64,000 bases of DNA from Patescibacteria group bacterium (GTDB taxonomy: Bacteria; Patescibacteriota; Minisyncoccia; Phycocordibacterales; UBA9973): assembly GCA_038061755.1 (NCBI GenBank), contig JBBTYN010000004.1, forward strand, positions 3,198 to 67,197. The letters are read 5' to 3'. Below the pieces are notes generated by a model. That model searched no databases. It worked only from the letters and a program-made list of their open reading frames with translations, and was not told the DNA's origin. The position numbers and the translations under genes are program-made. Positions 4,501 to 58,395 of this stretch are shown one piece after another (position 1 is the stretch's first letter; every line of letters starts with the position of its first letter).

Positions 4501-4911
4501 ATGGCAAAAATTTCTCCCAAAAATATAGCAGAAGCAGTGTATGAGGCAACAAAAAACAAGTCGGGACAGGGCTTGGCGTTTGTACTTAAACGCTCGGCTC
4601 AAATAATAAAAGAGAAAAGAATGTTGGGTAAGTCTAATGAAGTCTTAAGTGCTTTGCAAAATATTTTTGATAAAAAAACTGGTACTGTTAGAATGAAAGT
4701 AACAACTACGAATAATATAGGGATAGAGGAGAAAAGTAAATTAGAGAGTGAAATTAAAGAAAAATATAAGGCGCAAATTGTGATAGGTGAATTTTTTAAA
4801 AAAGAAGAATTATTAGGCGGAATGAAGATTGAGGTTGGAGATGAAATATTGGATAATACATACAAAAATAAACTTCAGAAATTAGAAAAATTTTTAATAC
4901 AAGAAAAATAA
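4501..4911 (+). CDS. atpH: ATP synthase delta (OSCP) subunit, short form.
   Basis: C-terminal motif ELLGGMKIEVGDEILDNTYKNKLQKL matches the delta C-terminus, plus operon position. At 136 aa it is shorter than typical delta subunits. Confidence 0.75.
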   Translation: MAKISPKNIAEAVYEATKNKSGQGLAFVLKRSAQIIKEKRMLGKSNEVLSALQNIFDKKTGTVRMKVTTTNNIGIEEKSKLESEIKEKYKAQIVIGEFFKKEELLGGMKIEVGDEILDNTYKNKLQKLEKFLIQEK

Positions 4912-4920
4912 AATAAATAT

Positions 4921-6415
4921 ATGTCAAACCATATCGTAGAAATTTTAAAAAAAGAAATAGAAAATTTTAAAACAGAAATTAAGGTTGAAAAAGTGGGTAA
5001 AGTATTAGAAGTTTTTGATGGCATTGCAAAAGTTTCTGGACTTTCAGATATTAAATCTTCTGAAATGGTAACTTTTTTGAATGGTGAGACGGGGGTGGCT
5101 CTTAACTTAGAGGAAGATACAGTCGGGGTAATTATTTTCGGGGAATTTTCTGCTATTAAAGAAGGGGATGAAGTAAAAGCTACTGGAAAAATTCTTGAAA
5201 TTCCAGTTTCTGATAGTATTTTAGGGAGAGTAGTAAATGCCATTGGTGTTCCTATTGATGGCAAGGGCGCTATAAAAGCCGGAAAAAACGGTTTGCAAAC
5301 TTATCCAATTGAAAAAGTGGCTTCAGGTGTTATTACTCGCTTATCTGTCTCAGAACCAGTTTCTACTGGTATAAAGGTTATTGATGCGATTATTCCTATT
5401 GGTCGTGGGCAACGCGAACTTATTATTGGTGATCGCCAAACTGGAAAAACCGCAATCGTTATTGATACAATTCTTAATCAAAAAGGTCAAGATATGATAT
5501 GCGTGTATGTCTCTATTGGTCAAAAAGATTCTAAATTGAGAAAGATTGAAGCGCGATTAGAAGAAGGCGGAGCGATGGCTTATACAGTTATCGTATCAGC
5601 TGGCGCTTCAGAAGCTGCTTCACTTTCTTATGTTGCGCCATATACAGGAGTAACTATTGCGGAATATTTTATGGATCAAGGTAAAGACGTTTTGATTATT
5701 TATGATGATCTTTCTAAACACGCTGTCGCTTATCGTGAAATTTCTCTTTTGCTCCGTCGTCCACCAGGTCGCGAGGCATACCCAGGAGATGTTTTTTATT
5801 TGCATTCTCGTTTGCTTGAACGCGCTTGTCGTAGAAATAAAGAATATGGCGGAGGTTCCATCACAGCTTTGCCTATTATTGAAACACAGGCTGGCGATGT
5901 GTCAGCATATATTCCAACAAATGTTATTTCTATTACTGATGGACAAATTTTTCTAGAAACTGATCTTTTTTATAAAGGTATTAGGCCTGCGGTAAATGTT
6001 GGTCTTTCTGTTTCTCGTGTTGGTTCTAGTGCTCAGATTAAAGCAATGAAAAAAGTGGCTGGGACATTAAAACTCGATTTAGCGCAGTTTCGTGAGCTTG
6101 AAGCATTTGCTCAATTTGGTTCTGATCTTGATGATGCCACCAAGCGCCAGCTTGAACGCGGAAAGAGAGCGGTAGAAGTATTAAAACAGCTTCAATATGC
6201 GCCAGTAAAAATTGAACACCAAATTGTCACGCTTTATGCTCTTACTAAAGGTTTTATGGATGATGTAGCAATTGATAAAATAAAAGAATTTGAACAAGGA
6301 TTCATGGAATATAGTGAACGTAATGCAAAAGTTTTTTATAAACAAATTGCTGAGAAAAAAATGTGGGATGATAAAGGCGAGGAGGAATTAAAAAAAGCAA
6401 TTGAGGATTTTAAAA

Positions 6416-6429
<14 letters not shown>
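4921..6429 (+). CDS. atpA: ATP synthase F1 alpha subunit.
   Basis: Walker A GDRQTGKT and the conserved alpha-subunit core. Confidence 0.95.
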
Positions 6430-8729
<2,300 letters not shown>

Positions 8730-9556: not shown

Positions 9557-10270
9557 ATGTCTAAATTTTATGTGGTGGCGACACCGATAGGAAATATGGG
9601 AGACATTACACTCCGAGCTATCGAAACACTAAAAAGTGTGGATTTGATATTGTGTGAAGATACTCGAGAGACTAAGAAGATTTTAGATAAATATGGTATC
9701 AGTAAAATAACTATGAGTTATCCATCCGATGATGTAATCGGAAAAAACTACAGACAAAGTAAGCTTGCAAAGATTTTAAGATTACTAGAAGAAGGGAAAA
9801 ATTTAGCATTAGTTTCAGACGCTGGTACACCAGGGATTTCTGATCCGGGAGCTTTACTTGTTTCTCAAATCAAAGAGCATTTTAATCCAGCAAGGGGAGT
9901 CCTTGCTGGAAAAGTGCAAGTTATTCCAATTCCGGGTCCTTCAGCCGTTATCGCTGCGCTCTCGGCCTCAGGATTACCAATTCATGAATTCACTTTTCTA
10001 GGTTTTTTGCCACACAAAAAAGGTAGGGAAACATTATTTAAAGAAATTTCGCAAGCAAAAAGAACGATGGTATTTTATGAATCTCCGCATAGAATATTAA
10101 AAACGCTAGAATCTCTTATAAAATATACCCCAAATAAAAAAGTCTGTATTGCTCGAGAATTGACAAAAATTTATGAAGAATTTAAAACAGGTACACCTGT
10201 TGAAGTTTTGGAATATTTTCAAAAGAATAAAGAGAAGCAAAGAGGGGAGTTTGTTGTTATAGTTTCTTGA
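9557..10270 (+). CDS. rsmI: 16S rRNA (cytidine1402-2'-O)-methyltransferase; tetrapyrrole-methylase fold.
   Basis: N-terminus LYVVATPIGNMGDITLRAIETLKSVDLILCEDTRETKKIL is diagnostic of RsmI. Confidence 0.85.
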   Translation: MSKFYVVATPIGNMGDITLRAIETLKSVDLILCEDTRETKKILDKYGISKITMSYPSDDVIGKNYRQSKLAKILRLLEEGKNLALVSDAGTPGISDPGALLVSQIKEHFNPARGVLAGKVQVIPIPGPSAVIAALSASGLPIHEFTFLGFLPHKKGRETLFKEISQAKRTMVFYESPHRILKTLESLIKYTPNKKVCIARELTKIYEEFKTGTPVEVLEYFQKNKEKQRGEFVVIVS

Positions 10271-10273
10271 AAA

Positions 10274-10317
10274 GCCAAAGGGCATCTTTGACACACTTGT
10301 CAAAGATGCCCTTTGGC
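10274..10317. repeat. Nested palindromic element, copy 1, variant A: gccaaagggcatctttgaca-cact-tgtcaaagatgccctttggc. It lies between the convergent genes rsmI and priA.
   Basis: Perfect 20-bp arms. Sits between two converging genes. Confidence 0.9.
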
Positions 10318-10322
10318 AGGAT

Positions 10323-12275
10323 TTACAACAAATCTTCGGGATCTACAAATATTTCAAAAGATGATGGAAGAGAAAGAAGTTTAGCTAGAAGATTTTTATC
10401 TATAGAAGAATTAGTGGAAATTTCTGGAAGAGACCATTCTTGAGTATTTATTTTTATTAATGTGTTTGTTACATATTTATTTTTATTTTTAGTTATAAAT
10501 CCACTGAAGATTTCAGGATTGTATTCTTTAAAAAGTTCTTTTAATGTTTTTTTAGCTTCAATAGACTCTTCTTTATCACCAAAATAGGTAATTTTTATAA
10601 AACGTTTATATGGTGGATAGAATAATTTACGTCTATCTTCTAATTCTTCTCGCACAAAAGATAATAAATTTCCTGCTTTAATTGCAAGGATTGCTGGATC
10701 ATTCTCATTTTTTATTTGGATGATAAGTAATTCTTTTGTGTTATTAATTATTGAAAGTACAATTTGGATAATTTTTTCACTCATTTTAAAATTTGGTATG
10801 CTCCAAAGTGAATCAAAAGAAGCGATAATTGAAAGTGACACTTTGTTTTTTAAGTAGAAAAATGCCATTTCTGTACCTATTAATATTGACCCCTGATTAT
10901 CTTCAAATTCTTTTATGATTTTTTTGGCACCACTTTCTGTTTTTGCAGATTCTTTGTCTAATCTAAAAATTTTTGTTTTTGGAAATTTATTTTTAATTTC
11001 TTCGAAAACAGTTTCTGTTCCTATTCCAAGAGGCATTAAATTCCAACTTCCACAAGTTGCACAAGCAATGTCTCCGTCTATATTTATTTCACATCTATTA
11101 CATACGAACGCCCTTTTTTTATTTTGGTGTGACATATAAAGTACTAATGGTGCTCCACATTTTTCACAGCTCATTGTTTCATTGCAGTCTTTACAAAGAG
11201 TCATAGTTGCTAAACCTTTCCTTAATGAGAAAATAAAAATACTTTTTTTATTTTCTAATGTAGATTTTATTTCTTTTATACTTTCATCATTTAATATTTG
11301 GAATTTTTTATTACCTCTCCCCCCATCGCCTGGTAATTGGCGGGCAGGCTTACCTAAAACTTCTATTTTTCCATCAAAATCAATTCTAAAAGATAACGGA
11401 TATAAGGGATTTAAATTATCCATATCTTTTCTTCCAATTGTCTCGTAGCGTAATATTTCATCAGCTATAATAAATCTAGCATTTATTTTTGAAGCATAAA
11501 TCTCTACAAAAACTCTTAAATCAATATGTGTTTTCGTAATTATTTTATAAATATTAGAATTTTCGTGTTCTAAAATTATAGTGCCAATATTTTTTTTAGG
11601 AATAGACAAAAATGGCGGAGTGCTGATGATTAAGACTGGGTGAGTGGAATTTATTATTTTTTCATAAGTTATTAATTTTTTTTTTGCATTTATTCCACCA
11701 TGTATAGAAAAAGTAAATTTTTCAATTCCTTTTGATAATTGAAGAGTAAATTTTTCTATATCAAACTGAGTTGGTAAAACCAAAAAAATAGATTTATTTC
11801 TTGCAAAAGATTCTCGAACAAGTGTTTTGTATATAGATATGCGATCTTGTAATGGATATTGAAATAATAATTTTTCAGATTTTAGATTTTGTTGTTTTTC
11901 AAGCGAGGTAAAAGGTGGGGTAAGGTGCATTATCTTATCATATTTTTCTATAAAAATATTTGGAATTAATGAAGCAATGGCACTGTTTTTATTTTGGGCA
12001 AAATATTTACTTGTATCAAAAATTGTATCAAGAAATTCTTTTAAAAAAAAAGAACTTCCTTTGTCTTTTGTAACTTTTTTTAAGTTAAAATCCATATTTT
12101 TTACATTGCTTTTTTCCCCTTTTAGTTCTTCACTAGAAGTAACTAGCGCCAGGGTTTCCTTGTTTCTTATTGGAACAGATACAATATTTCCAACAGCTAT
12201 GTTCAAACTGGTAAAATAAGTTAAATCACCTTTCAATATACATTTTTTTAGTGGTATGACGGATATTATTTTCAT
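10323..12275 (-). CDS. priA: Primosomal protein N' (PriA)-like. The Cys-rich zinc region and C-terminal lobe are intact, but the Walker A and DEEH motifs are degenerate.
   Basis: Cys-rich region CKDCNETMSCEKCGAPL...CNRCEINIDGDIACATCGS and lobe-2 motifs are present. No GxGKT is seen, and the DEEH position reads IILEHENS. Confidence 0.7.
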   Translation of the reverse strand: MKIISVIPLKKCILKGDLTYFTSLNIAVGNIVSVPIRNKETLALVTSSEELKGEKSNVKNMDFNLKKVTKDKGSSFFLKEFLDTIFDTSKYFAQNKNSAIASLIPNIFIEKYDKIMHLTPPFTSLEKQQNLKSEKLLFQYPLQDRISIYKTLVRESFARNKSIFLVLPTQFDIEKFTLQLSKGIEKFTFSIHGGINAKKKLITYEKIINSTHPVLIISTPPFLSIPKKNIGTIILEHENSNIYKIITKTHIDLRVFVEIYASKINARFIIADEILRYETIGRKDMDNLNPLYPLSFRIDFDGKIEVLGKPARQLPGDGGRGNKKFQILNDESIKEIKSTLENKKSIFIFSLRKGLATMTLCKDCNETMSCEKCGAPLVLYMSHQNKKRAFVCNRCEINIDGDIACATCGSWNLMPLGIGTETVFEEIKNKFPKTKIFRLDKESAKTESGAKKIIKEFEDNQGSILIGTEMAFFYLKNKVSLSIIASFDSLWSIPNFKMSEKIIQIVLSIINNTKELLIIQIKNENDPAILAIKAGNLLSFVREELEDRRKLFYPPYKRFIKITYFGDKEESIEAKKTLKELFKEYNPEIFSGFITKNKNKYVTNTLIKINTQEWSLPEISTNSSIDKNLLAKLLSLPSSFEIFVDPEDLL

Positions 12276-21127: not shown

Positions 21128-22138
21128 ATGTCAAATCTATATTCCAATTCAATTTTTTGGATTGATACTGATAAAATAAAACCAAATCCTTTTCAACCAA
21201 GACGAGATTTTGATGAAGCTCGTTTGCAAGACTTAGCTGATTCAATAAAACAATATGGAGTTCTTCAGCCACTTATAGTTTCTCGAGTAGAGGTAGAAAA
21301 AGATGGTGGCGGACTTGTAACTGAATATGAATTAATAGCTGGAGAGCGCAGGCTTCGAGCTGCTAAGATTGCAATGGTATCGCAAGTGCCAGCTGTAATT
21401 CGTGCAGGAGATACAGCTTTAATGAAACTTGAGCTTGCGATTATTGAAAATTTACAGCGCGAAGATTTAAACGTCATTGATAGGGCTCGAGCTTTTTTTC
21501 GCTTAGTTACTGAATTTAAATTTACCCACAATGAAGTAGCAAAAAAGATGGGCAGAAGCAGGGAATATGTTTCAAATACTTTGCGTATTTTAACCCTACC
21601 AGAAGAAATTTTAAATGGTTTATCCGAAGGAAAAATTTCCGAAGGACATACTAGGCCTATTTTGATGCTCGCAGACCATCCTCAAGAACAATTAGTTTTA
21701 TTTAAAGAAATTGTTTACAAAAAAATTACCGTACGTGAGGCAGAAAGATTAGCGAGAAAAATAGCTTATGATCGTGTACGCAAGAAAGAATTTATGCCAG
21801 ATCCAGAAATTACGGAACTGGAAGAAGAATTTCAAGAAAAATTAGGCACTCGTGTTCACATAGATAGAAAAGAATTAGGTGGACAAATTAAAATTGATTT
21901 TTTTTCTACCGAAGATTTGCGAACAATTTTAGATTTAATTCATAAAGGAGAAGTTGAAAAAAAACCTGAAGAAATGATGGATAATTATATTACAAATTCA
22001 GAGGTTAAATCTTTGGAGTTTGGACGTCCAGAATCCGAATTTTTAACATCAAAAGAAGCTCCAGTTGACGACAGATCCAAAGAAGAAGCAGAAAAAGACG
22101 AGACTGATTTATATAATATTTCTAATTTTAGCGTTTAA
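21128..22138 (+). CDS. parB: ParB/Spo0J chromosome-partitioning protein.
   Basis: ParB box GERRLRAAK plus an HTH, with an acidic C-terminal extension. Confidence 0.85.
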   Translation: MSNLYSNSIFWIDTDKIKPNPFQPRRDFDEARLQDLADSIKQYGVLQPLIVSRVEVEKDGGGLVTEYELIAGERRLRAAKIAMVSQVPAVIRAGDTALMKLELAIIENLQREDLNVIDRARAFFRLVTEFKFTHNEVAKKMGRSREYVSNTLRILTLPEEILNGLSEGKISEGHTRPILMLADHPQEQLVLFKEIVYKKITVREAERLARKIAYDRVRKKEFMPDPEITELEEEFQEKLGTRVHIDRKELGGQIKIDFFSTEDLRTILDLIHKGEVEKKPEEMMDNYITNSEVKSLEFGRPESEFLTSKEAPVDDRSKEEAEKDETDLYNISNFSV

Positions 22139-22154
22139 GTAAATTGCCAAAGAT

Positions 22155-22199
22155 GCCAAAGATGCCCTTTGACACTGAGTGTCAAAGGGCATCTTTGGC
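22155..22199. repeat. Nested palindromic element, copy 2, variant B: gccaaagatgccctttgacac-tga-gtgtcaaagggcatctttggc. It is preceded by a partial direct duplicate, gccaaagat. It lies between the convergent genes parB and rel.
   Basis: Perfect 21-bp arms. Confidence 0.9.
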
Positions 22200-22204
22200 A
22201 AACA

Positions 22205-26899: not shown

Positions 26900-28171
26900 A
26901 TGTTAGACATCAAATTTATTCGTGAAAATAAAGATATTGTGCAGGCGGGTGCGAAGAAAAAAAATATTGAGATAGATATTGATGCTTTGATTGTGCTTGA
27001 TGATAATCGCTTAAAAGAACTTAAAGAAGTAGAAGAACTTCGTAGTGAAGTAAATAGAGTTTCAAATGATATATCTCGCGATCAAGATCCAGCATCCAAA
27101 ATTCAACTAATTGAAGAAATGCGCGCAGTGAAAGAAGACATTAAAGCAAAAGAAGAAAAATTAAAAATAACCATAGAAGAATGGCAGAAAATTATGGTGC
27201 AAGTGCCTAATGTGCCAGATATGTCTGTACCAGATGGAAAAACAGATGTGGAAAACAAAGAAGTAAAAGTTTGGGGTGAAATTCCAAAATTTGATTTTAC
27301 TCCTAAAAATCATATTGAGCTTATGGAAAATTTAGGAATACTTGATATGGCTAGAGGTGTAAAAGTTGCTGGTTTTCGTGGATATTTTTTAAAGGGTGAT
27401 GGAGCTCTTCTTGAATTTGCTTTATGGCAGTTTGTGCAGGATTTCTTTTCTAAAAAAGGAGGCTTTATTCCGATGATTGTTCCTTCTCTTTTGAAACGAG
27501 AAGTATTTTTAGGTACTGGTTATCTTCCGCAAGGTGAAGAAGATTTATACAAAACGCAAGATGGCGAGTATTTATCAGGTACAGCAGAAGTTGCAATGAT
27601 GGGGCACTATATGGGTGAAATTTTAGAAAAAAAAGATCTGCCAATAAAAATGCTTGGATTTTCTTCTGCTTTTCGTCGTGAGGCGGGAAGTCATGGTAAA
27701 GATACAAAAGGTATTCTTAGAGTTCATGAATTTTTTAAATTTGAACAAGTTGTACTTTGTGAAGCACAACATACAGAATCAGTAAAATTTCATGAAGAAA
27801 TACAACGTAATACTGAAGAAATTATGGAGGCATTAGGATTGCCTTATCATGTGGTAATAAACTGTGCTGGAGATCTTGGTTTGGGTCAAGTTAAAAAATA
27901 TGACATTGAAGCTTATTTGCCATCTGAAAATACCTATCGGGAAACTGGTTCTGCTAGTTATTTTCATGATTTTCAAACAAGACGATTAAATATCCGTTAT
28001 CGTGATGAAAATGGTAAATTAAAATTTGTTCACTCTTTAAATAATACTGCTCTTTCTGGTAGACCACTCATTATGATAGTAGAAAACTACCAACAAGCAG
28101 ACGGATCTATAAAAATTCCAGAAGTTTTACGCAAATACATGGGAGGTAAGGAATTTATAAAAAATAGCTAG
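26900..28171 (+). CDS. serS: Seryl-tRNA synthetase.
   Basis: N-terminal coiled coil MLDIKFIREN and class II motifs. ATG 26900 preferred as the start. Confidence 0.9.
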   Translation: MLDIKFIRENKDIVQAGAKKKNIEIDIDALIVLDDNRLKELKEVEELRSEVNRVSNDISRDQDPASKIQLIEEMRAVKEDIKAKEEKLKITIEEWQKIMVQVPNVPDMSVPDGKTDVENKEVKVWGEIPKFDFTPKNHIELMENLGILDMARGVKVAGFRGYFLKGDGALLEFALWQFVQDFFSKKGGFIPMIVPSLLKREVFLGTGYLPQGEEDLYKTQDGEYLSGTAEVAMMGHYMGEILEKKDLPIKMLGFSSAFRREAGSHGKDTKGILRVHEFFKFEQVVLCEAQHTESVKFHEEIQRNTEEIMEALGLPYHVVINCAGDLGLGQVKKYDIEAYLPSENTYRETGSASYFHDFQTRRLNIRYRDENGKLKFVHSLNNTALSGRPLIMIVENYQQADGSIKIPEVLRKYMGGKEFIKNS

Positions 28172-28208
28172 GCAAGACCTAGCATGCTAGGTCTTGCCTA
28201 GCTATTTT
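28161..28208. repeat. Perfect 48-bp palindrome aaaatagctaggcaagacctagcatgctaggtcttgcctagctatttt. It overlaps the serS stop codon.
   Basis: Seen directly. Likely a terminator or attenuator hairpin between serS and the downstream gene. Confidence 0.85.
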
Positions 28209-28213
28209 ACACA

Positions 28214-29101
28214 ATGCAAAAAAGAAATGTTTTAAATTCTCCTGGTCTTTTAGAATTAAAAAAAAGAAGGCATAGAGTTTTTTTTAATAAAGTTTTAATT
28301 TTTTTGTTTGGAGTTTTAGTAATTTTCTTATTATTAGTTTATCTTTCTTGTCTTAATAAATTAAATATTAGTGAAGTGGAGATTCTTGGTAATAAAGTTT
28401 TAGATACAGAAAAATTAAATAATGCAGTAGAAAAGCAAATTGCTGGAAAATATTTATGGCTTTTCCCTAAGACTAATATTTTAATATATCCCCAAAATAC
28501 TATTAAGAACGAACTTCAAAATGAGTTTAAGAGAATTAAAGATATTAATTTGAAGATTAAAAATACTAAAATATTAGAAGTATTATTGACTGAAAGAGAA
28601 GCGAAATATACTTGGTGCGGGATAATTTTTTCTGGTGTTGGAATCCCACAGGGAAGTCCAATACCCGAAAAAAAAGAAGAAAATTGTTATTTTATGGATG
28701 AAGATGGTTATATTTTTGATGAAGCGCCATATTTTTCTGGTGAAATTTATTTTAGGTTTTATGGTCAGGTAAATAGTAATCCTATTGGATTTTATTTTTT
28801 TGAACAAAATTTTAAACAATTAGTTGCTTTTAGAGATATTCTTATTAGTATTGGATTAAAACCTATAGCATTAAATATTTTGAATATTGAAGACGCAGAA
28901 ATTATTCTTTCAAGTGAAACTTCTTTAATAAATGAACCTAAAATTATTTTTAGATTAAATGCTGATTTTCAAAATGTTGCAGAAAATTTACAAACAGCTT
29001 TAAATACCGAACCCCTAAAATCAAAATTTAAAAATAAATATTCAATGTTGCAATATATTGATTTGCGATTCAAAAATAAAGTTTATGACAAATTCCAATA
29101 A
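28214..29101 (+). CDS. ftsQ: FtsQ/DivIB-like cell-division protein (TM helix plus POTRA domain).
   Basis: N-terminal TM helix and a POTRA-like segment (ISEVEILGNKVL...LLTEREAKYTW). Confidence 0.5.
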   Translation: MQKRNVLNSPGLLELKKRRHRVFFNKVLIFLFGVLVIFLLLVYLSCLNKLNISEVEILGNKVLDTEKLNNAVEKQIAGKYLWLFPKTNILIYPQNTIKNELQNEFKRIKDINLKIKNTKILEVLLTEREAKYTWCGIIFSGVGIPQGSPIPEKKEENCYFMDEDGYIFDEAPYFSGEIYFRFYGQVNSNPIGFYFFEQNFKQLVAFRDILISIGLKPIALNILNIEDAEIILSSETSLINEPKIIFRLNADFQNVAENLQTALNTEPLKSKFKNKYSMLQYIDLRFKNKVYDKFQ

Positions 29102-30137
29102 AAAAAATTTCTGGAAAAATCTTGAAAAACCATTTTTTTGTTTAGCGCCAATGTCGGACGTTACCGATATTGCTTTCCGCTCCATATTGATGAAATATAG
29201 CAAGGATAGAGAAAATAAAAACAGTGTTGTTTTTTGGACAGAATTTGTTGCAGCTGATGGTTTGTGCAATAAACTTGCTAGAAAAAAACTAGCGCATATA
29301 TTAAAATTTAAAGAGAGCGAAAGACCAATTGTAGCTCAAGTTTTTGGTGCTAATCCTGATAATATGAAGTATGCTTGCCAATATATTGCTAGCCTTGGTT
29401 TTGATGGGATAGATATAAATATGGGTTGTCCAGATAAATCTGTGGTAAGCCAAGGAGCAGGTTCTGGTTTGATTAAAAATCCATTACTTGCCAGAAAAAT
29501 TATACAGGCGGCACACGCTGGGATAGATTCTGCTGGTCTACATATCCCAGTATCTATTAAAACAAGAATTGGTTTTAATAAAGAAGAAATTGATATTTGG
29601 ATAGGGGAATTGTTAAAAGAGGATATTTCTGCTTTAACAATTCATTTGCGTACCACTAAGGAATTATCACTTGCACCGGCACATTGGGATTTAATGAAAA
29701 GAATTATTGAATTACGAAATAAAATAAGCCCAGAGACTTTAATAATTGGCAATGGAGATGTAAAAGATTTAAAAGATGGGGAGGAAAAAGCTCTAAAGTA
29801 TGGTTGTGATGGAGTTATGATCGGTCGTGGAGTTTTTGGTAATCCTTGGTTTTTTAAAAGCCAAAGGGCACCTTTGACACACTTGTCAAAGGTGCCCTTT
29901 GGCAATGAGGAATCAAATGTTAAAGAAAAATTAAAAATTTTAGTAGAGCACACACAGATTTTCGAAAAGGAACTTTCAGGACCTAAACATAAAAGTTTTG
30001 CCGTTATGAAAAAGCATTTTAAAGCGTATGTGAATGGTTTTGAAGATGCAAAAGAGCTTCGAGTAAAATTAATGGAAACAGAAAATGCTAAAGAAGTTGA
30101 GAAGATAGTTAATGATTTTTTAACTCGCCTACATTAA
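29058..30137 (+). CDS. dus: tRNA-dihydrouridine synthase. It carries an in-frame copy of the palindromic element at 29860..29903.
   Basis: FFCLAPMSDVTD, VAQVFG, INMGCP and GVMIGRG motifs of Dus. The start may instead be ATG 29085. Confidence 0.85.
   Translation: MICDSKIKFMTNSNKKNFWKNLEKPFFCLAPMSDVTDIAFRSILMKYSKDRENKNSVVFWTEFVAADGLCNKLARKKLAHILKFKESERPIVAQVFGANPDNMKYACQYIASLGFDGIDINMGCPDKSVVSQGAGSGLIKNPLLARKIIQAAHAGIDSAGLHIPVSIKTRIGFNKEEIDIWIGELLKEDISALTIHLRTTKELSLAPAHWDLMKRIIELRNKISPETLIIGNGDVKDLKDGEEKALKYGCDGVMIGRGVFGNPWFFKSQRAPLTHLSKVPFGNEESNVKEKLKILVEHTQIFEKELSGPKHKSFAVMKKHFKAYVNGFEDAKELRVKLMETENAKEVEKIVNDFLTRLH
29860..29903. repeat. Nested palindromic element, copy 3, variant A. It lies inside the dus ORF and is translated as QRAPLTHLSKVPFG.
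   Basis: Perfect palindrome with the ORF left open. Relative to copy 1 it has the compensatory change t/a to c/g. Confidence 0.9.
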
Positions 30138-34979: not shown

Positions 34980-37886
34980 ATGATTTCCCGAATATATGTG
35001 ACACCTAAAGGCAAAGCTAATTTCATTAATTCTTATTTAATTTCACATAAATTTGCAAGTGATCAAAGAGATAAAATCCTTAAAATAGCCAAGGCTTTAA
35101 CTAACCCCATCCTCGAAGAATTTTTTATAAATAAATTCCCAAAAACAAAGAAATTTACTTATGTAATAGAAATAGGTTTTAAACCTGGGGTCACAGACAA
35201 TGTCGGGCATACTGTAGAAGAAACTATAATTGATTTACTGGGTGTTGTCGGGTGTCCAACACCCGACAACATAGCAGTCTATACTTCTAAGATTTTTTTA
35301 GTTTCCAATTCTAAATTAGAAGAAGTAAAAAAGATTGCTCTCTCGCTTCACAATCCTCTCATTGAGCGTTCTTATGTCGCGAGTTTTGCTGAAATAAAAA
35401 AAAATGGCTTACCCTTAAAGGTTCCTAAGGTTATTTTAAAAAAGGCTATTCCTGTAATTAATGTTTCTCTTAATGTGTCTGATGAAGAACTTAAAAAAAT
35501 CGGAAAAGAGGGGATAATGGACGAAACAAATATTAGACGAGGTCCTTTGGCTCTTGATTTGACATCAATGAAAGTAATCCAAGAACATTTTAAAAAATTT
35601 AAAAGAGATCCGACCGATATTGAGCTGGAGTCTCTTGCGCAGACTTGGTCTGAACATTGTAAACATACTATTTTTGCAAATCCTATTGACGACATCAAAG
35701 ACGGTTTATATAAAACATACATAAAAAGCGCAACAAATCTAATCAGAAAAAATAAAGGCAAAAATGATTTTTGTATTTCTGTATTTTCTGATAATTCTGG
35801 AGGAATAATTTTTGATAAAGATTATTTAATAACGCATAAAGTTGAAACACACAACAGCCCTTCAGCCTTAGATCCATTTGGAGGTGCTATCACAGGTATT
35901 GTGGGTGTAAATCGAGACACGATAGGTTTTGGCTTAGGTGCTAAACCAGTAGCTAATGTTTATGGTTTTTGTTTTGGAAACCCAGAAGATAAAAGCTTAC
36001 TTTTTCGCGACAAAAATTTAACACAAAAAATGCTTTCACCAAAAAGAATAATGGAAGGGGTGGTAAAAGGTATAAATGTAGGAGGAAACTGTTCCGGAAT
36101 ACCGACTCTTTCTGGTTTTGTTCATTATGATGATAGATATAGGGGCAAGCCTCTAGTTTTTGCTGGCACAGTCGGATTAATTCCAAGAAAAATACAAGGA
36201 AAATTATCACACAAAAAACAGGCACAAGTTGGAGATTATATCGTTGTTGTTGGCGGAAGAGTAGGGCTTGATGGTATTCATGGGGCAACTTTTTCTTCTG
36301 TGGTAATGGATTCAAGTTCCCCAGCGACCGCAGTGCAAATCAGTGACCCAATTACTCAAAAAAAATTAAGTGATGCAATAATTAAAGAAGCGCGTTATAT
36401 GAATTTATATAATAGTATTACTGATAATGGTGCTGGTGGAATTTCTTGTTCAGTTGCTGAAATGGCAAAAGAATGCGGGGGAGCAAAAGTTTTTTTGGAA
36501 AAAGTACCACTAAAATACCTGAGTCTTCGTCCATGGGAAATTTGGATTTCAGAATCACAAGAACGTATGACTTTATCGGTGCCAAAGAAAAAGTGGAGTA
36601 CATTCAAAAAATTAATGGAGAAAAGGGGAGTGGAAGCGACAGTAATAGGTGAATTTACAAATTCTAAAAAATGTATTGTAGAATATAGTGGTAAAAAAAT
36701 CATGGATATTGATATGGAATTTTTACATGAAGGACTTCCAAAACAACATTTAATTACTTCTTCAGTTATTTATAAAAATATTGAACCAATACTTGAAATA
36801 AAAAAATCTTTTACTGCAATTCTAGAAAAATTACTAAGTAATAAAAATCTTAGTGGATTTTCTTTTATTTCCGAACAATATGACCATGAAGTGCAAGGGT
36901 CTTCTGTTCTAAAACCACTTTCTGGGAGAGGTCGTATAAATACCGATGCACAAGTTTTTCAACCAGTTTTAAATTCAAATAAAGGAGTTATTTTGTCTTC
37001 TAGTACTTATCCTTCATATGGAGATATTAGCACTTATCATATGGCTTCTTGCGCGATAGATACTGCTATTAGAAATACTGTTTGTTCTGGTGGAACACTT
37101 TCGCATTTAGCAATTTTAGATAATTTTTGTTGGTGTTCATCCAATGACCCAAAACGTTTAGCGCAGTTAGTAGATTCAGTGAAAGCTTGTTATGAATATG
37201 CTGTAGGTTTTGGTACACCTTTTATTTCTGGCAAAGACAGTATGTTTAATGATTTTAAAGGTTATGATGAAAAAGGGGAGCCTATGGCTGTTTCTATACC
37301 ACCGACACTTCTTATTTCAGCGATCAGCGTTATGCCTGACTTAAATAAAACTGTTTCTCCAGAATTTAAAAAAATTGGCGATATAATTTATTTATTAGGA
37401 GAAACGAATGATGAACTTGGTGGGGGAGAATATTATAAAACACTTGGCGTTGTTGGTAGTAATGTACCAAAAGTAGATTTAAAGAAAAATATAAAAACTT
37501 ATCGCGCTTTAGAAAAAGCAATTCAAAAAGAATTAATAGCTTCGGCAATATCTGTAAATTCTGGCGGACTTGCAATAGCACTCGCCAAAGCCTGTGTGGG
37601 AGGAATGGTAGGTTGTAATGTTTCCCTAAAGAGCCAGATAGCGCCTAAGGCGCTATCTGTAGAAGTAAAATTATTTTCTGAAAGTCAGGGAAGAATTTTA
37701 GTTTCTGTTTCCCATCAAAATGTTGCTAAATTTGAGCAAATAACCGCTACTTTACCAAGGGTTACCCTTGGTAAAGTAATAAAAGATGGGAAATTTATAA
37801 TTACCAATGGTAAAAATAAAGTAGTAGAAACAAATATTAAAAAGTTGTATGATGCATACCATAAATTTTCTAACTCACAAAAATGA
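34980..37886 (+). CDS. purL: Phosphoribosylformylglycinamidine synthase, a PurS-like N-terminal domain and linker fused to a PurL synthetase. The glutaminase is encoded separately downstream.
   Basis: PurS-like segment VIEIGFKPGVTDNVGHTVEETI, then PTDIELESLAQTWSEHCKHTIF and the AIR-synthase-related FGAM domains. 968 aa. Confidence 0.85.
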   Translation: MISRIYVTPKGKANFINSYLISHKFASDQRDKILKIAKALTNPILEEFFINKFPKTKKFTYVIEIGFKPGVTDNVGHTVEETIIDLLGVVGCPTPDNIAVYTSKIFLVSNSKLEEVKKIALSLHNPLIERSYVASFAEIKKNGLPLKVPKVILKKAIPVINVSLNVSDEELKKIGKEGIMDETNIRRGPLALDLTSMKVIQEHFKKFKRDPTDIELESLAQTWSEHCKHTIFANPIDDIKDGLYKTYIKSATNLIRKNKGKNDFCISVFSDNSGGIIFDKDYLITHKVETHNSPSALDPFGGAITGIVGVNRDTIGFGLGAKPVANVYGFCFGNPEDKSLLFRDKNLTQKMLSPKRIMEGVVKGINVGGNCSGIPTLSGFVHYDDRYRGKPLVFAGTVGLIPRKIQGKLSHKKQAQVGDYIVVVGGRVGLDGIHGATFSSVVMDSSSPATAVQISDPITQKKLSDAIIKEARYMNLYNSITDNGAGGISCSVAEMAKECGGAKVFLEKVPLKYLSLRPWEIWISESQERMTLSVPKKKWSTFKKLMEKRGVEATVIGEFTNSKKCIVEYSGKKIMDIDMEFLHEGLPKQHLITSSVIYKNIEPILEIKKSFTAILEKLLSNKNLSGFSFISEQYDHEVQGSSVLKPLSGRGRINTDAQVFQPVLNSNKGVILSSSTYPSYGDISTYHMASCAIDTAIRNTVCSGGTLSHLAILDNFCWCSSNDPKRLAQLVDSVKACYEYAVGFGTPFISGKDSMFNDFKGYDEKGEPMAVSIPPTLLISAISVMPDLNKTVSPEFKKIGDIIYLLGETNDELGGGEYYKTLGVVGSNVPKVDLKKNIKTYRALEKAIQKELIASAISVNSGGLAIALAKACVGGMVGCNVSLKSQIAPKALSVEVKLFSESQGRILVSVSHQNVAKFEQITATLPRVTLGKVIKDGKFIITNGKNKVVETNIKKLYDAYHKFSNSQK

Positions 37887-40634: not shown

Positions 40635-41930
40635 ATGCAAAAACAAAAAATTTTAATAATAGGTTCCGGTGGAAGGGAACATGCTATAGGGTGGAAAGTA
40701 GCGCAATCACCCAAGGCGGGACAAATTTTCTTTGCGCCTGGAAATGGGGGGACAAGTAAAATAGGAATTAATGTAGATATAAAAGCAAATGATATAAAAG
40801 GATTGTTAGAATTTGCAAAAAAAGAAAAAATAGATTTAACATTGGCTTTACCTGACGACCCACTTGCGCTTGGAATTGTAGACGAATTTAAAAAAAATAA
40901 TTTACGTATTTTTGGCCCGACAAAACAAGCTAGTAAAATTGAATGGTCTAAAGCTTTTTCAAAAAATTTTATGCATCAACACAATTTATTAACAGCAAAA
41001 TTTGAAATATTTAATAATTTTGAAAAAGCAAAAAAATATATATCAGAACAATCTTTCCCAGTTGTTATAAAAGCAAGTGGTTTAGCATTGGGAAAAGGTG
41101 TAATCATTTGCCAAAATCTAGAGGAAGCGAATGAAGCGCTAGAAAATATGTTTATAAAAAAAGTTTTTGGGGATGCTGGCAGTATTGTAGTAATAGAAGA
41201 ATTTTTAACTGGTCCAGAAATTTCTATTCATGCATTTTCAGATGGGAAAAATTACAAAATGTTTCCAACTTCTCAGGACCATAAAAAGATAGGAGAAAAT
41301 AATACTGGTTTAAACACTGGTGGAATGGGCACGATCGCTCCGCTCCCTTTTGTGACTGATAAACTTTTAAAAAATATTGAAAAAGATATTGTTATTCCAA
41401 CTATTGAATCAATGAATAAAGATGATAATCCATTTTTAGGTGTGATTTATCCAGGATTAATGCTAACAAAAGATGGCCCAAAAATTCTTGAATACAATGC
41501 GCGTTTTGGCGACCCAGAAACTCAAACATATATGCGACTTTTAGATACAGATATTTTGGATATTTTTAATGCATGTGTTGATGAAAAACTTGATCAAATA
41601 GAGATAAATTGGAGTAAAAAATTCGCTTGCACAATAGTGCTTGCTTCAGGAGGATATCCAGAAAATTATGAAAAAGGTAAAGTAATTTCAGGTATTGAAG
41701 AAGCAGAAATGCAATCTGATATAGTTGTCTTCCACGCTGGCACAAAAATTGTGAGGCAAGACCTCACAACTAATGGCGGGCGAGTATTAGGAGTTTCAGC
41801 TATTGGAAATACTCTAGAAGAAGCACTACAAAAAGCTTACAAAGCTATAGAAAAAATTTCTTTTGAAGGTATGCAATACCGCAAAGATATCGGTCAATCT
41901 GCATTAAAAATACCTATTTATCCCAATTAA
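40635..41930 (+). CDS. purD: Phosphoribosylamine--glycine ligase.
   Basis: ATP-grasp GARS domains (ILIIGSGGREHAIGWK). Confidence 0.9.
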   Translation: MQKQKILIIGSGGREHAIGWKVAQSPKAGQIFFAPGNGGTSKIGINVDIKANDIKGLLEFAKKEKIDLTLALPDDPLALGIVDEFKKNNLRIFGPTKQASKIEWSKAFSKNFMHQHNLLTAKFEIFNNFEKAKKYISEQSFPVVIKASGLALGKGVIICQNLEEANEALENMFIKKVFGDAGSIVVIEEFLTGPEISIHAFSDGKNYKMFPTSQDHKKIGENNTGLNTGGMGTIAPLPFVTDKLLKNIEKDIVIPTIESMNKDDNPFLGVIYPGLMLTKDGPKILEYNARFGDPETQTYMRLLDTDILDIFNACVDEKLDQIEINWSKKFACTIVLASGGYPENYEKGKVISGIEEAEMQSDIVVFHAGTKIVRQDLTTNGGRVLGVSAIGNTLEEALQKAYKAIEKISFEGMQYRKDIGQSALKIPIYPN

Positions 41931-46377: not shown

Positions 46378-47925
46378 ATGATAAAAGAAAATAAAAAAAT
46401 AAAATCAGCTTTAATTTCAGTTTTTAATAAAGATGGACTTGAAGAAATTGTAAAACTTCTTCATAGGCATAATGTAAAAATTATTTCTACTGGTGGTACG
46501 GCAGAATTTATTCGCAAACTTAGTGTACCAGTAACTGAAGTAGAAGAAATCACAAATTATCCTGCCTTATTTGGTGGTAGAGTTAAAACACTGCAACCAC
46601 AAATTTTTGGCGGGATTTTAAATCGCCGAGATAATGTAAATGATATAAAAGAAAAAGTGGAGCACAAAATAGAAGACATTGATTTGGTAATCGTAGACCT
46701 ATATCCATTTGAAGAAACTCTAGCTAGTGGAGCTAATGAGGAAGAAATTATTGAAAAAATAGACATCGGCGGAGTATCTTTAATTCGCGCAGCGGCGAAA
46801 AATTTTAATGATGTCGTAGTGATTCCTTCAAAACATCAATATGAAGAATTAAAAAATATTTTAAAAATAAGTGACACTACGACATTAGAACAACGCAAAA
46901 AATTTGCAGGCAATGCATTTGAAGTGACAAGTATTTACGATAGTGCTATTCGTGGGTATTTTCAACCTTTGCCAAAGATGCCCTTTGACATATTGATGTC
47001 AAAGGGCATCTTTGGCAATATCCCGCTGCGCTATGGAGAAAACCCACACCAAAGAGCAAAATTTATAGGTAATTTAGAAGAGAGTTTTATACAACTTCAT
47101 GGAAAAGAGCTTTCTTATAATAATTTGATGGATACTGAAGCTGCCATTATGACCGTTTATGATTTTAGAGATCCTGCTTTCGCTATTGTTAAACATATGA
47201 ATACTTGCGGTCTGGCTGTTAGGGAAGAAGGACATTTATTTGAGGCGTATCAAGCAGCTTATAATGCCGACCCACTTTCAGCTTTTGGTGGAGTATTAAC
47301 AGCTAATAGAATTATTGAGGAAGACATCGCTAAACTTATCAAGGAACAAAAACTTTTTATAGAAGTAATTATTGCGCCAGATTTTTCAAAAGAAGCTTTA
47401 AATATTTTAATGGAGAAAAAGGATTGTAGAATTTTGAGGTGGAAAAAACCAAACCTTCCGCTAAAACAAAACAAGACTTGCTTTACTGGAATTCTGTCGC
47501 AAGATCGAGATACTCATATAGAAAGTGAGACAGATTTAAAAGTGACAACTAAGCGTGAACCAACAGAGCAAGAGAAAAAGGATTTACTCATTGCTGCAGT
47601 AATAACGAAACATTTAAAATCTAATGCTATCGCTTTAGTAAAAGATGGAACACTTCTTTCAATGGGTTGTGGACAAACTTCACGCATTGATGCATTAAAA
47701 CAAGCTATTGATAAAGCCAAAAAATTTAAATTTTCACTCAAGGGTGCTGTTATGTCATCTGAAGCATTTTTCCCATTTCCTGATTGCGTAGAGATGGCAG
47801 GGGAAGAAGGTATAACTGCTGTACTTCATCCTGGAGGTTCAAAGAATGATCAAACATCCATAGATATGGCAAATAAATACAAAATGGCAATGGTAACAAC
47901 TGGCTTTAGACATTTTAAGCATTGA
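46378..47925 (+). CDS. purH: Bifunctional AICAR transformylase / IMP cyclohydrolase. It carries an in-frame copy of the palindromic element at 46971..47016.
   Basis: MGS-like N-terminal domain and an AICARFT domain (LRYGENPHQ). Confidence 0.9.
   Translation: MIKENKKIKSALISVFNKDGLEEIVKLLHRHNVKIISTGGTAEFIRKLSVPVTEVEEITNYPALFGGRVKTLQPQIFGGILNRRDNVNDIKEKVEHKIEDIDLVIVDLYPFEETLASGANEEEIIEKIDIGGVSLIRAAAKNFNDVVVIPSKHQYEELKNILKISDTTTLEQRKKFAGNAFEVTSIYDSAIRGYFQPLPKMPFDILMSKGIFGNIPLRYGENPHQRAKFIGNLEESFIQLHGKELSYNNLMDTEAAIMTVYDFRDPAFAIVKHMNTCGLAVREEGHLFEAYQAAYNADPLSAFGGVLTANRIIEEDIAKLIKEQKLFIEVIIAPDFSKEALNILMEKKDCRILRWKKPNLPLKQNKTCFTGILSQDRDTHIESETDLKVTTKREPTEQEKKDLLIAAVITKHLKSNAIALVKDGTLLSMGCGQTSRIDALKQAIDKAKKFKFSLKGAVMSSEAFFPFPDCVEMAGEEGITAVLHPGGSKNDQTSIDMANKYKMAMVTTGFRHFKH
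46971..47016. repeat. Nested palindromic element, copy 4, variant B. It lies inside the purH ORF at the inter-domain linker and is translated as LPKMPFDILMSKGIFG.
   Basis: gccaaagatgccctttgacat-attg-atgtcaaagggcatctttggc with 21-bp perfect arms. The ORF is left open. Confidence 0.9.
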
Positions 47926-56844: not shown

Positions 56845-57225
56845 ATGGAAAAAATCAAGTCATTTATAGAGAGTGAGAAAGGGAAAGATATTTTGATAGT
56901 TCTCATTGTTATTTTGGTTGGTTTAGGATCATTTGAGCTAGGTAGGCTATCAAAAGAAAATGACTCGGGAAGCATAAAAATAGAATATCCGAATCAAGAT
57001 TTCAACCAAGAAGCCAGCACTATTTCAGCTATAAGTAATGTGCCAAAGACAGTCTTTGATACAAATTCATTTAGAAAAACTTTTTTCGCTTCAAGCAAGG
57101 GAACTAAATATTATACAATAAGCTGTTCTGCCGGTAAAACTATCAAACAAGAAAACAGAGTTTATTTTACAACAGGGGAGGAGGCGCAAGCGGCCGGGTA
57201 TACTCTTTCTAGCTCGTGTCAATAA
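56845..57225 (+). CDS. Membrane-anchored protein with a C-terminal Ada-like metal-binding domain.
   Basis: N-terminal TM helix. The C-terminus YYTISCSAGKTIKQENRVYFTTGEEAQAAGYTLSSSCQ resembles the Ada_Zn_binding pattern (YC...C...F.s..eA.aaGyrpC). Confidence 0.45.
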   Translation: MEKIKSFIESEKGKDILIVLIVILVGLGSFELGRLSKENDSGSIKIEYPNQDFNQEASTISAISNVPKTVFDTNSFRKTFFASSKGTKYYTISCSAGKTIKQENRVYFTTGEEAQAAGYTLSSSCQ

Positions 57226-57254: not shown

Positions 57255-58232
57255 TTATTTATTATCAAATTCCTTTCCTCCATGAAATTTTTCATGTATA
57301 TCTCTTAGTCCCTTATTTGTTACGTGAGTATAAATCTGTGTTGTGGCCACATTTTTATGACCTAAAAGCTCCTGCACGCTTCGTAAATCAGCTCCATGAC
57401 TCAAAAGATCAGTAGCATAACTATGGCGAAGTGTGTGAGGTGTTACTTTTTTTGAAATTCCTGCAAGCATTGCACATCTTGAAATCATCTTCTGTATTGA
57501 ACGGGGAGTAAGTCTATGATCATCATCTATATCTTTTCCGTGATAATTTATAAATAAAGGCTTCTGAATATCTGTTCTAGATGCTAGATAGATCCGAAGC
57601 CATAAAGCCGCACGAGGGGAAATAAAAATGGTTCGTATATGTTTTCCTTTTCCAACAATAGAAAGCTCAAAGGTGCGCTTCGGATTTTTATCTTTTAAAA
57701 ATGACATCTGGTCTACATTGATTGCTACCAATTCCGAAATACGCATACCGGATGAAAAAAACAGTTCCATAATTGTACGATCCCGAAGGCCAATAGAGGT
57801 TTTTATGTCAGGAATCTTTAACATCTCTTCAATGTCGCGGACTTCTAGAAAAGAAATAGTTTCGTCGGTTTTTTGCTTGGCTAATTTCACCTTAGAGGAA
57901 GATATTGTCTCTATGTCGCGGTCAGCGAGAAAGTCAAGAAGCGCACGTACTGCAATCAAGTAATAATTTTGAGATTTTTTACCTAAATATTCACCAGAAC
58001 GGGTTTTATAACTTCGAGCTAAATATAATCGATAATCCCAAATATGGTTTGCTGTTAAATCATGCGGGAGTAAATCTTCATTATTAGTTTTCTTTAGCCA
58101 ATCAATAAATAGTTTTAGATACTGTTTATAATTACGTTGTGTATTGCTAGATAATCCTTTTTCAATCTCACAGTAATCAAGAAAGGGAAGGATGTATTTG
58201 ACTATTGGTTGAATCGTTTTCTTTGTCTCCAT
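57255..58232 (-). CDS. xerC: Tyrosine recombinase XerC/XerD-like.
   Basis: R...HxxR...Y catalytic region (HTLRHSYATDLL...LGHKNVATTQIYTHV). I prefer ATG 58232 over the upstream GTG 58256. Confidence 0.8.
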   Translation of the reverse strand: METKKTIQPIVKYILPFLDYCEIEKGLSSNTQRNYKQYLKLFIDWLKKTNNEDLLPHDLTANHIWDYRLYLARSYKTRSGEYLGKKSQNYYLIAVRALLDFLADRDIETISSSKVKLAKQKTDETISFLEVRDIEEMLKIPDIKTSIGLRDRTIMELFFSSGMRISELVAINVDQMSFLKDKNPKRTFELSIVGKGKHIRTIFISPRAALWLRIYLASRTDIQKPLFINYHGKDIDDDHRLTPRSIQKMISRCAMLAGISKKVTPHTLRHSYATDLLSHGADLRSVQELLGHKNVATTQIYTHVTNKGLRDIHEKFHGGKEFDNK

Positions 58233-58261
58233 ATGATATAGTATAGTAGTTCGCACAATAT

Positions 58262-58291
58262 ATGTAAAGCGAATAACTATTCGCTTTACAT
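58262..58291. promoter_or_regulatory. Perfect 30-bp palindrome atgtaaagcgaata-ac-tattcgctttacat immediately upstream of xer; candidate operator or dif-like site.
   Basis: Seen directly. A second, imperfect hairpin lies at 58295..58331. Confidence 0.5.
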
Positions 58292-58395
58292 AACGCAGAT
58301 TTTACGACACCGAAGGTTCGTAATAATCTGCTCAAAGCGAACTTATCCACATATATAAATATATTCTATATATTAACAAGTCCCTTCCCAGATTA

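Follow-up and report, generated by a model that had tools for sequence, protein, structure and literature searches.

The DNA examined here, referred to as the window, is a stretch of 64,000 nucleotides (nt) from contig JBBTYN010000004.1 of the Patescibacteria group bacterium assembly GCA_038061755.1. Its gene for tRNA-dihydrouridine synthase (Dus) carries a perfect palindrome at 29860 to 29903, a member of a dispersed family of short hairpin repeats that lies in frame within the linker between the two domains of the enzyme. The locus contains the following features.

29085..30137, + strand: Dus, 350 amino acids (aa), intact (Pfam PF01207, E = 1.2e-55, residues 20 to 346; Foldseek; identical to MEK7471315.1).
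29860..29903, no strand assigned: doublet of the repetitive extragenic palindrome (REP) type, like a REPIN (REP doublet forming a hairpin), 20+4+20 nt, with units at 29859 to 29879 and 29884 to 29904 and 5-nt (N5) cores GGCAC and GTGCC.
29859..29903, + strand: 15 in-frame Dus codons, S259 to G273, read as SQRAPLTHLSKVPFG; disordered interdomain linker loop by ortholog alignment and AlphaFold2 model.

The palindrome in the Dus linker

The element reads GCCAAAGGGCACCTTTGACA cact TGTCAAAGGTGCCCTTTGGC, two arms of 20 nt that are 100% complementary around a 4-nt loop, and as RNA it is predicted to fold at -40 kcal/mol (z = -9.5 against shuffles). At up to three mismatches its arm has eight matches in the window, which make up four palindromes, and none in 100 dinucleotide-preserving shuffles, and these figures bear out the initial annotation, which had recognized a palindromic element inside the dus open reading frame (ORF). 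That ORF starts at the ATG at 29085 and runs uninterrupted through the element, with exactly the translation written for it at the outset: GNPWFF is followed by KSQRAPLTHLSKVPFGNEE, and the frame across the element is GNPWFF-K-SQRAPLTHLSKVPFG-NEESNVKEKL. An identical Dus protein, MEK7471315.1, from a metagenome-assembled genome (MAG) of a Patescibacteria group bacterium, is present on nine contigs, and two further alleles differ by three to four substitutions elsewhere and leave the insert unchanged; the same insert in all of these is therefore no assembly artifact.

Comparison with the 120 best Dus homologs, which are 72 to 99% identical, delimits the insertion. The homologs align gap-free as far as GNPW(F/V/L)F and from (E/K)KLxxLxEH onward, and between the W and the (E/K)KL motif there are 11 to 14 residues in insert-free orthologs (for example, FFSGREIGSKE and FFSSKSNPEISLEE) versus 26 in the Dus of the window. 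Removal of 45 nt leaves FFKNEESNVKE, the 11-residue spacing found in P0014, P0083, and P0096. Orthologs at 72 to 84% identity show the stretch as extra, and the nearest ortholog read as DNA (L003/L004), which is 82 to 84% identical and has the same gene order, contains no palindrome. The linker insertion of 14 or 15 residues that had been proposed is thus confirmed as 15 codons.

Its placement between the TIM-barrel motif and the C-terminal helical domain held up equally well. An AlphaFold2 model built on 38 orthologs (predicted local distance difference test [pLDDT] score, 78.9; predicted template modeling score, 0.80) matches the solved Dus structures 3b0p, 1vhn, 4yco, and 6ei9 at E <= 1e-14 in Foldseek and has their fold, a TIM barrel with a C-terminal helical domain. 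Residues 250 to 274 form a coil between the last barrel strand (243 to 246) and the first helix of the helical domain (275 to 297), and the sole internal segment with a pLDDT of <50, residues 261 to 272, is the insert. The gene has an intact frame and retains the residues that do not vary among orthologs, synteny with relatives is conserved, and three alleles are recorded; it thus does not look like a pseudogene.

A dispersed repeat family and its protein hosts

The repeat unit is 21 nt long, TG-N-CAAAG-N5-CTTTG-N-CA, and is itself a small stem-loop with a free 5-nt center, fully symmetric in most genomes. Two inverted units that lie 4 to 12 nt apart make a doublet of 44 to 58 nt, which forms a single hairpin of 20 to 23 bp; the N5 cores are exactly complementary in 38 of 41 distinct doublets, which contain 14 different cores, and the predicted RNA folds range from -37 to -40 kcal/mol (z = -8 to -10.5). 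The window contains four doublets and one single unit, compared with 0 to 0.6 expected by chance (nine unit matches of the family, or 11 at up to three mismatches, versus 0.56 expected), and 1.31 Mb of related loci contains 42 doublets and seven single units (91 units), compared with 0 to 1 in shuffles. Counted along the window, the dus element is the third doublet, and the remaining members are as follows.

10274..10317, no strand assigned: copy 1, doublet with core GGCAT, intergenic, 3 nt past the stop of a TP_methylase gene (9557 to 10270, + strand) and 5 nt past the stop of the convergent gene 10323 to 12275 (- strand).
22145..22200, no strand assigned: copy 2, doublet (22154 to 22200) with 9 nt of its outer end duplicated in tandem (22145 to 22153), between the convergent genes parB and relA/spoT.
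46969..47018, no strand assigned: copy 4, doublet (23+4+23) in frame in PurH (46378 to 47925, + strand), read as (P)LPKMPFDILMSKGIFGN, adding 17 aa.
57041..57061, no strand assigned: single unit TGCCAAAGACAGTCTTTGATA, read in frame as VPKTVFDT within a small Ada Zn-binding domain protein (56845 to 57225, + strand).

Copy 2 is a clean lineage-specific insertion of 66 nt, the two stop codons overlapping (GTTTAAGAACG) in four syntenic relatives. At its outer end the 9-nt sequence TGCCAAAGA occurs twice (22145 to 22162), which suggests slippage at the internal direct repeats of the element. The same slippage could have reduced doublets to the single units seen in PurH orthologs. In the PurH of the window, the insert separates YFQ from LRYGENPHQ at the junction of the IMP cyclohydrolase domain with the AICAR formyltransferase domain; among 120 orthologs, about 95 have no insert, about 22 have one unit at the same place (MSKAGFDT and similar), one has a doublet, and one has two units with unrelated cores. 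The dus copy lacks the form of an intrinsic terminator, a G+C-rich hairpin followed by a run of U on the transcribed strand; after the hairpin, the sense strand of dus continues with AATGAGGAA, and the T runs beside copies 1 and 3 are on the antisense side only.

An exact-pattern scan of one genome per species returned 34 loci in about 20 MAGs, with 1 to 8 exact-pattern hits in each species representative. Going by the titles of the records, all are Patescibacteria except two or three (Nomura-, Doudna-, and Portnoybacteria, with some titled Saccharibacteria); the other titles are one Prevotella, one Caldilineaceae, and one MAG titled Gammaproteobacteria. This last record, CAZGDX01... ("uncultured Gammaproteobacteria bacterium"; L093, L102, L105, L110, L115, and L118), has genes 39 to 59% identical to those of the window, and the homologs of its REP-associated tyrosine transposase (RAYT) are all from Patescibacteria. 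Its title looks like a mislabel, and several of the MAGs titled Saccharibacteria may be mislabeled likewise. Viral contigs scanned for the family pattern gave no match and no sign of a phage origin.

Predominantly extragenic location, a trait of REPs, was not found: 26 of 38 exact-pattern copies lie in frame inside long open frames, at least 24 of them in hosts supported by Pfam. The hosts assigned in this way are listed below.

Dus: seven further genomes, same linker.
TypA/BipA: three genomes, at a common site past the GTPase domain.
RecG: two genomes, past the wedge domain.
MnmA: twice.
LeuRS, UvrA, PurD, ATP synthase gamma, HolB, UppP, RNase HII, PAP2, and GatC.
Glycosyltransferase: gene boundaries unclear.

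Several of the housekeeping hosts are struck at domain boundaries, and copies outside genes mostly lie 3 to 21 nt past a stop codon. All intragenic copies found preserve the frame of the host and are free of stops, and none of the copies found splits a gene out of frame. The unit has two open reading frames, CQRxSLT and SKxxFD, and a third that contains a TGA (CTT-TGA-CA); only the two stop-free frames are used across CTTTGACA, and variant right arms with the outer end CTTTGCC (L102 and L118) are read in the third.

This census bears on two explanations that would leave the palindrome without a history of its own or without a protein product. That the stretch is a native linker sequence of the lineage, palindromic by chance, or a product of assembly is exceedingly improbable. 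Dus linkers do vary greatly in length and sequence from one ortholog to another, as the former would have it, but no shuffle of 100 matches the arm, three other near-identical doublets occur in unrelated contexts in the same window, the family recurs at 34 loci in about 20 other genomes, and the identical protein was assembled independently on nine contigs, with two alleles besides; the copy census therefore already refutes this explanation. We also think it very unlikely that the element goes untranslated, either in a pseudogene or through bypass or removal of 44 to 45 nt at the RNA level. Translational bypass is known from T4 gene 60 and from the byp elements of Magnusiomyces mitochondria. 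A perfect 20-bp stem in the middle of a coding region would be a strong obstacle and a potential RNase III substrate, but bypass or excision would not require that all intragenic copies found be in frame, free of stops, and clear of the CTT-TGA-CA frame, nor is any gene split out of frame by a copy. The retention of the invariant Dus residues, the restriction of differences among the three alleles to a few substitutions outside the insert, and the conserved synteny likewise argue for a translated element.

Association with RAYT transposases

A transposase gene bracketed by the same repeat is present in the CAZGDX... MAG (L110), which has the most copies, all with core GGCAC, the core of the window Dus copy. 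An ORF of 207 aa (1763 to 2386) has a doublet with this core 15 nt upstream of its ATG (2402 to 2450) and a single unit with this core 2 nt past its stop (1740 to 1760). The protein matches Pfam Y1_Tnp (PF01797) at 41 bits (cutoff, 23), carries the motifs YHVYNRGN, NHFHL, GHVFQDQF, and YVHQNP, and is named RayT by the Joint Genome Institute; its only NCBIfam match is NF047646, REP-associated tyrosine transposase, at 55 bits, below the 80-bit equivalog cutoff. Searches of PDB sequences with the single sequence and with a profile found nothing, and a fold search with its AlphaFold2 model (pLDDT, 86.8) gave as the best PDB match 4er8, the E. coli RAYT-REP hairpin complex (E = 9e-7), followed by the IS608 and ISDra2 TnpA proteins. 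RAYT homologs are abundant in Patescibacteria MAGs, and all 40 of the 40 that were aligned match NF047646 only. Those at L125, L126, and L129 are each flanked by doublets of like architecture, consisting of (C/T)AA(A/G)G-N5-C(T/C)TT(G/A) units in inverted pairs. Units flanking a RAYT gene are the defining arrangement of REP/REPIN-RAYT systems. The arms of the window Dus copy are identical at 40 of 42 positions to those beside the L110 RAYT gene, in a genome that shares 39 to 59% protein identity with that of the window.

We therefore consider it likely that the dus palindrome is a copy of a short, nonautonomous, RAYT-associated repeat of the REP/REPIN type, read in frame as a tolerated linker. 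The 21-nt unit, as an inverted doublet, would fold into one hairpin of 20 to 23 bp, which a RAYT-type (Y1/HUH) transposase, a class that binds and cuts such hairpins in single-stranded DNA, would be expected to recognize and spread. Intergenic space is nearly absent from these genomes, and copies would therefore survive only just past stop codons or inside tolerant parts of proteins, and survival inside a gene would call for an added length that is a multiple of three and for one of the two frames that avoid the TGA of CTT-TGA-CA. The Dus copy would have inserted in the linker that joins the TIM barrel to the helical domain, where it would be transcribed and translated as a disordered surface loop of 15 residues that does not destroy the enzyme, with a presumably neutral or nearly neutral effect on Dus. 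Binding and cutting of this particular hairpin by RAYT is proposed by analogy with known systems, and mobility of the element has indirect signs in the lineage-specific insertion of copy 2 and in the sharing of one core among the copies of a genome.

Four observations weigh against this explanation. A tblastn search with the L110 RAYT found no RAYT gene within the 64-kb window, the part of the source genome that was searched, and present-day mobility in the source organism is therefore presumptive. No GTAG or CGTC end tag occurs at the flanks of 41 doublets, which have TG-N...N-CA ends only. Neither a target-site duplication nor a target motif was found at the clean site of copy 2 or in the flanks of the 41 doublets, apart from a slight excess of A next to the element, and the chemistry of insertion is therefore deduced from the transposase class alone. 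Finally, the same protein sites in many genomes hold copies with different N5 cores, each perfectly self-complementary, which would not be expected of purely neutral passengers; a filter of selection together with re-insertion, replacement, or gene conversion is needed.

REP and REPIN elements with RAYT partners are reportedly present in E. coli and Pseudomonas. The family described here resembles such systems in its palindromic unit of about 21 nt in multiple dispersed copies, in the prevalence of inverted pairs that make one long hairpin, in single units that look like remnants, in extragenic copies that lie just downstream of genes, and in a Y1/HUH transposase gene flanked by the same units (L110, L125, L126, and L129). 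It differs in having TG...CA ends and no GTAG/CGTC tag, a spacer of only 4 to 12 nt, few copies per genome (1 to 8 exact-pattern hits, versus hundreds in REP systems), about two-thirds of its copies in frame inside genes, and a transposase that scores 55 bits where the NCBIfam equivalog cutoff is 80. Two large REP superfamilies are defined by a conserved tetranucleotide, GTAG or CGTC, at one end of their unit, and REPs that lie in frame inside genes are already on record from Opitutus terrae, Thauera, and R. conorii (Di Nocera 2013, PMC3733652).

The initial annotation had drawn a parallel with Rickettsia palindromic elements (RPEs), which stands as a fair analogy for behavior, but the element is better classed as a RAYT-associated short REP doublet, outside the RPE families. 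As conveyed by PMC10969869, the RPEs of Ogata et al. (2000, 2002) are elements of about 100 to 150 bp that are found in Rickettsia only and make up families of their own, some tagged with CGTC. As far as that account goes, the two share a palindromic repeat placed in frame in many unrelated housekeeping genes of a reduced genome with host ORFs intact, insertion in a surface or permissive part of the protein, and orthologous sites common to related genomes, whereas RPEs are three times longer, and the 21-nt units and 44- to 58-nt doublets described here occur in another phylum and have an identified RAYT partner. By size, family, and taxon, as compared from descriptions of the RPEs, the element is not one of RPE-1 to RPE-10; by analogy, it may be regarded as a REP doublet (REPIN-like) in architecture that is RPE-like in its occupation of proteins. 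Bacterial miniature transposable elements with inverted repeats (MITEs; Correia/NEMIS, ERIC, RUP, Nezha, and others) are derived from DDE insertion sequences, measure 70 to 300 bp, and make target-site duplications (PMC10969869). They too are small nonautonomous repeats with inverted termini and occasional in-frame fusions, but a MITE has terminal inverted repeats around an unrelated core, whereas here the whole element is a palindrome, with no duplication at copy 2 and no conserved flank. Nematomorpha mitochondrial genes contain coding palindromes of up to 284 bp, both arms of which encode conserved protein regions (PMC6649704); these are likewise perfect inverted repeats in translated genes, kept perfect with the protein functional, but they are neither dispersed in multiple copies nor accompanied by a transposase. 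The literature, covered incompletely, yielded no account of elements of this kind in Patescibacteria (the candidate phyla radiation), and an earlier description is possible.

The family extends the coding-palindrome phenomenon of Rickettsia to another lineage with reduced genomes, now with an identifiable RAYT partner, which makes the mechanism testable by experiment through binding and cleavage of the hairpin by RAYT. Abutting and overlapping genes leave selfish DNA very little noncoding room in these genomes, and a transposase-associated hairpin repeat read as a linker would give lineage-specific variation in protein length in ultrasmall bacteria an origin at the DNA level. The peptides CQRxSLT and SKxxFD, shared by unrelated proteins, produce spurious similarity that may mislead alignments and the placement of domain boundaries, and the inserts could be useful as strain markers. 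The family gains in interest from its link to RAYT, from the unusually large share of in-frame copies in essential genes, and from the recurrence of sites at domain boundaries.

Recurrence at protein linkers and further repeats in the window

In the eight Dus genes that carry the element, the codon varies in 116 of the 129 columns with an invariant residue, whereas within the element Q, L, T, S, K, and F each have the same codon throughout; what is conserved is therefore the nucleotide sequence and not the peptide. Recognition by the transposase would explain this conservation, and so would a host function of the hairpin. The element could be a functional cis-acting sequence under selection at these sites, either an mRNA hairpin at domain boundaries that pauses ribosomes in support of cotranslational folding or that sets mRNA half-life through RNase III or a block to exonucleases, or a DNA site for a dimeric protein, with the link to a transposase being secondary. 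We regard this as unlikely. It would accommodate conservation at synonymous positions in the eight diverged Dus genes, the perfect complementarity of arms despite differing N5 cores, the recurrence of interdomain sites in Dus, PurH, TypA, and RecG across genomes, the 40 of 42 arm positions shared with a genome at 39 to 59% protein identity, and the very stable folds (z = -8 to -10.5). Most orthologs of each host gene, however, lack the element, the Dus site in the 120 orthologs being otherwise empty or occupied by at least seven unrelated insert families; the same element stands past stop codons and in proteins with no relation to one another; in the Dus linker, the point of insertion varies by 1 to 5 codons; and the sequence is exactly what flanks RAYT genes, where recognition by the transposase alone would hold TGTCAAAG/CTTTGACA constant. 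An Rfam search of the whole window at the gathering threshold found three tRNAs only and no family matching the repeat.

The Dus linker is a hot spot for insertion, with about 45% of the 120 orthologs carrying some insert, from at least eight families. The seven or more other, unrelated families in orthologs P0002 to P0120 include SPPTPLLxKERGAEGGERS, GKRQDLxxSKRSCLE, KKNVLSEVEG, SNFSSLRPSP...DPREQKIER, LKYFEDGRFxPEAGVMSKNIS, and KPGFxNLEKPGFGE. The two other Dus linker inserts that were read as DNA are palindromes as well, CCCTCTCCTT-gaa-AAGGAGAGGG (L086) and AAGGCAAGACCTT-11-AAGGTCTTGCCTT (L087). Members of the RAYT-associated family in Dus linkers start 1, 2, or 5 codons after FF and differ in core and in the length of the loop (4, 7, or 10 nt), which favors several events or replacement over a single inherited copy. 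Most simply read, insertion occurred repeatedly and selection kept the copies at sites that were in frame and tolerated; occupied sites may instead have undergone targeted re-insertion or gene conversion. A metagenome scan with a Dus profile returned mostly distant Dus genes without inserts, the hot spot being confined to the closer clade, and a neighbor-joining tree of the 120 orthologs, in which insert types are scattered, was too star-like for gains and losses to be counted. At the PurH site YFQG|xxLRYGENPHQ, orthologs P0122 to P0240 include other recurrent inserts at or near the site, such as CPQVRPVEPTGQTCGQ (P0128 and P0222) and sequences like SSFAKASADKQ (P0162, P0169, P0174, and P0175), and these may be further translated repeat families.

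A bolder proposal, which we think quite unlikely, is that protein linkers are the main niche of RAYT-associated hairpin repeats in Patescibacteria, more than merely tolerated, and that perfectly paired copies stay at the same interdomain sites of essential genes (Dus, PurH, TypA, and RecG) in different genera because the hairpin, as mRNA or DNA, acts there. Candidate roles for a hairpin at domain boundaries are ribosome pausing for cotranslational folding, control of mRNA decay, and "homing" re-insertion by the transposase. If this were so, the repeats would constitute a class of protein-coding, structure-constrained elements, selfish or domesticated, that would help to explain many of the lineage-specific inserts in Patescibacteria proteins. 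Perfect 20-bp stems in essential mRNAs pose a question for translation and for RNase III in the organisms concerned.

Two other candidates were rejected. Copy 2 abuts parB, and the repeat was for this reason considered as a canonical parS site (TGTTNCACGTGAAACA); only chance-level hits were obtained, and the 8+5+8 geometry with a free N5 is unlike parS. A full-length ParB is encoded at 21128 to 22138, and nothing within the 64 kb matches canonical parS better than chance. The palindrome TTGTGAGG-CAAGA-CCTCACAA at 41749 to 41769 in PurD (40635 to 41930), taken as a possible inserted unit, is associated with no difference in length from two orthologs and is probably no insertion; not every small palindrome in this DNA is an inserted element.

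Further palindromes occur in the window. A perfect, loopless palindrome of 24+24 nt at 28161 to 28208, AAAATAGCTAGGCAAGACCTAGCA|TGCTAGGTCTTGCCTAGCTATTTT, overlaps the last codons and the stop of serS and the short spacer to the next gene. Its center, AGG-CAAGA-CCT, shares its N5 with AAGG-CAAGA-CCTT, the palindrome inserted in the Dus linker of another genome (L087), and it probably represents a second REP-like family in the source genome. Near the C terminus of PurL (34980 to 37886), a perfect 15+1+15 palindrome, TACTTTACCAAGGGT-t-ACCCTTGGTAAAGTA (37748 to 37778), is read in frame as ATLPRVTLGKV, and its core, CAAGG-N5-CCTTG, is of the kind seen beside the RAYT genes of L125 and L129. A unit with a 10-bp stem at 9886 to 9910, TCCAGCAAGG-GGAGT-CCTTGCTGGA, lies inside the TP_methylase gene 9557 to 10270, where it is read as NPARGVLAG; three such units occur in the window, versus 0.14 expected. 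Significant intergenic inverted repeats are present at 58261 to 58292 (TATGTAAAGCGAATA-tt-TATTCGCTTTACATA), just upstream of a gene for an XerC/D-like recombinase (57255 to 58256), and, in nested form, at 1792 to 1847 around ACTAGCAAGGACAGTTCTT. Beside dus/holB in another MAG (L085), a small inserted module at 4795 to 7058 encodes a serine recombinase (Resolvase/Recombinase) and a REP_ORF2-G2P rolling-circle initiator and is probably an integrated small replicon.

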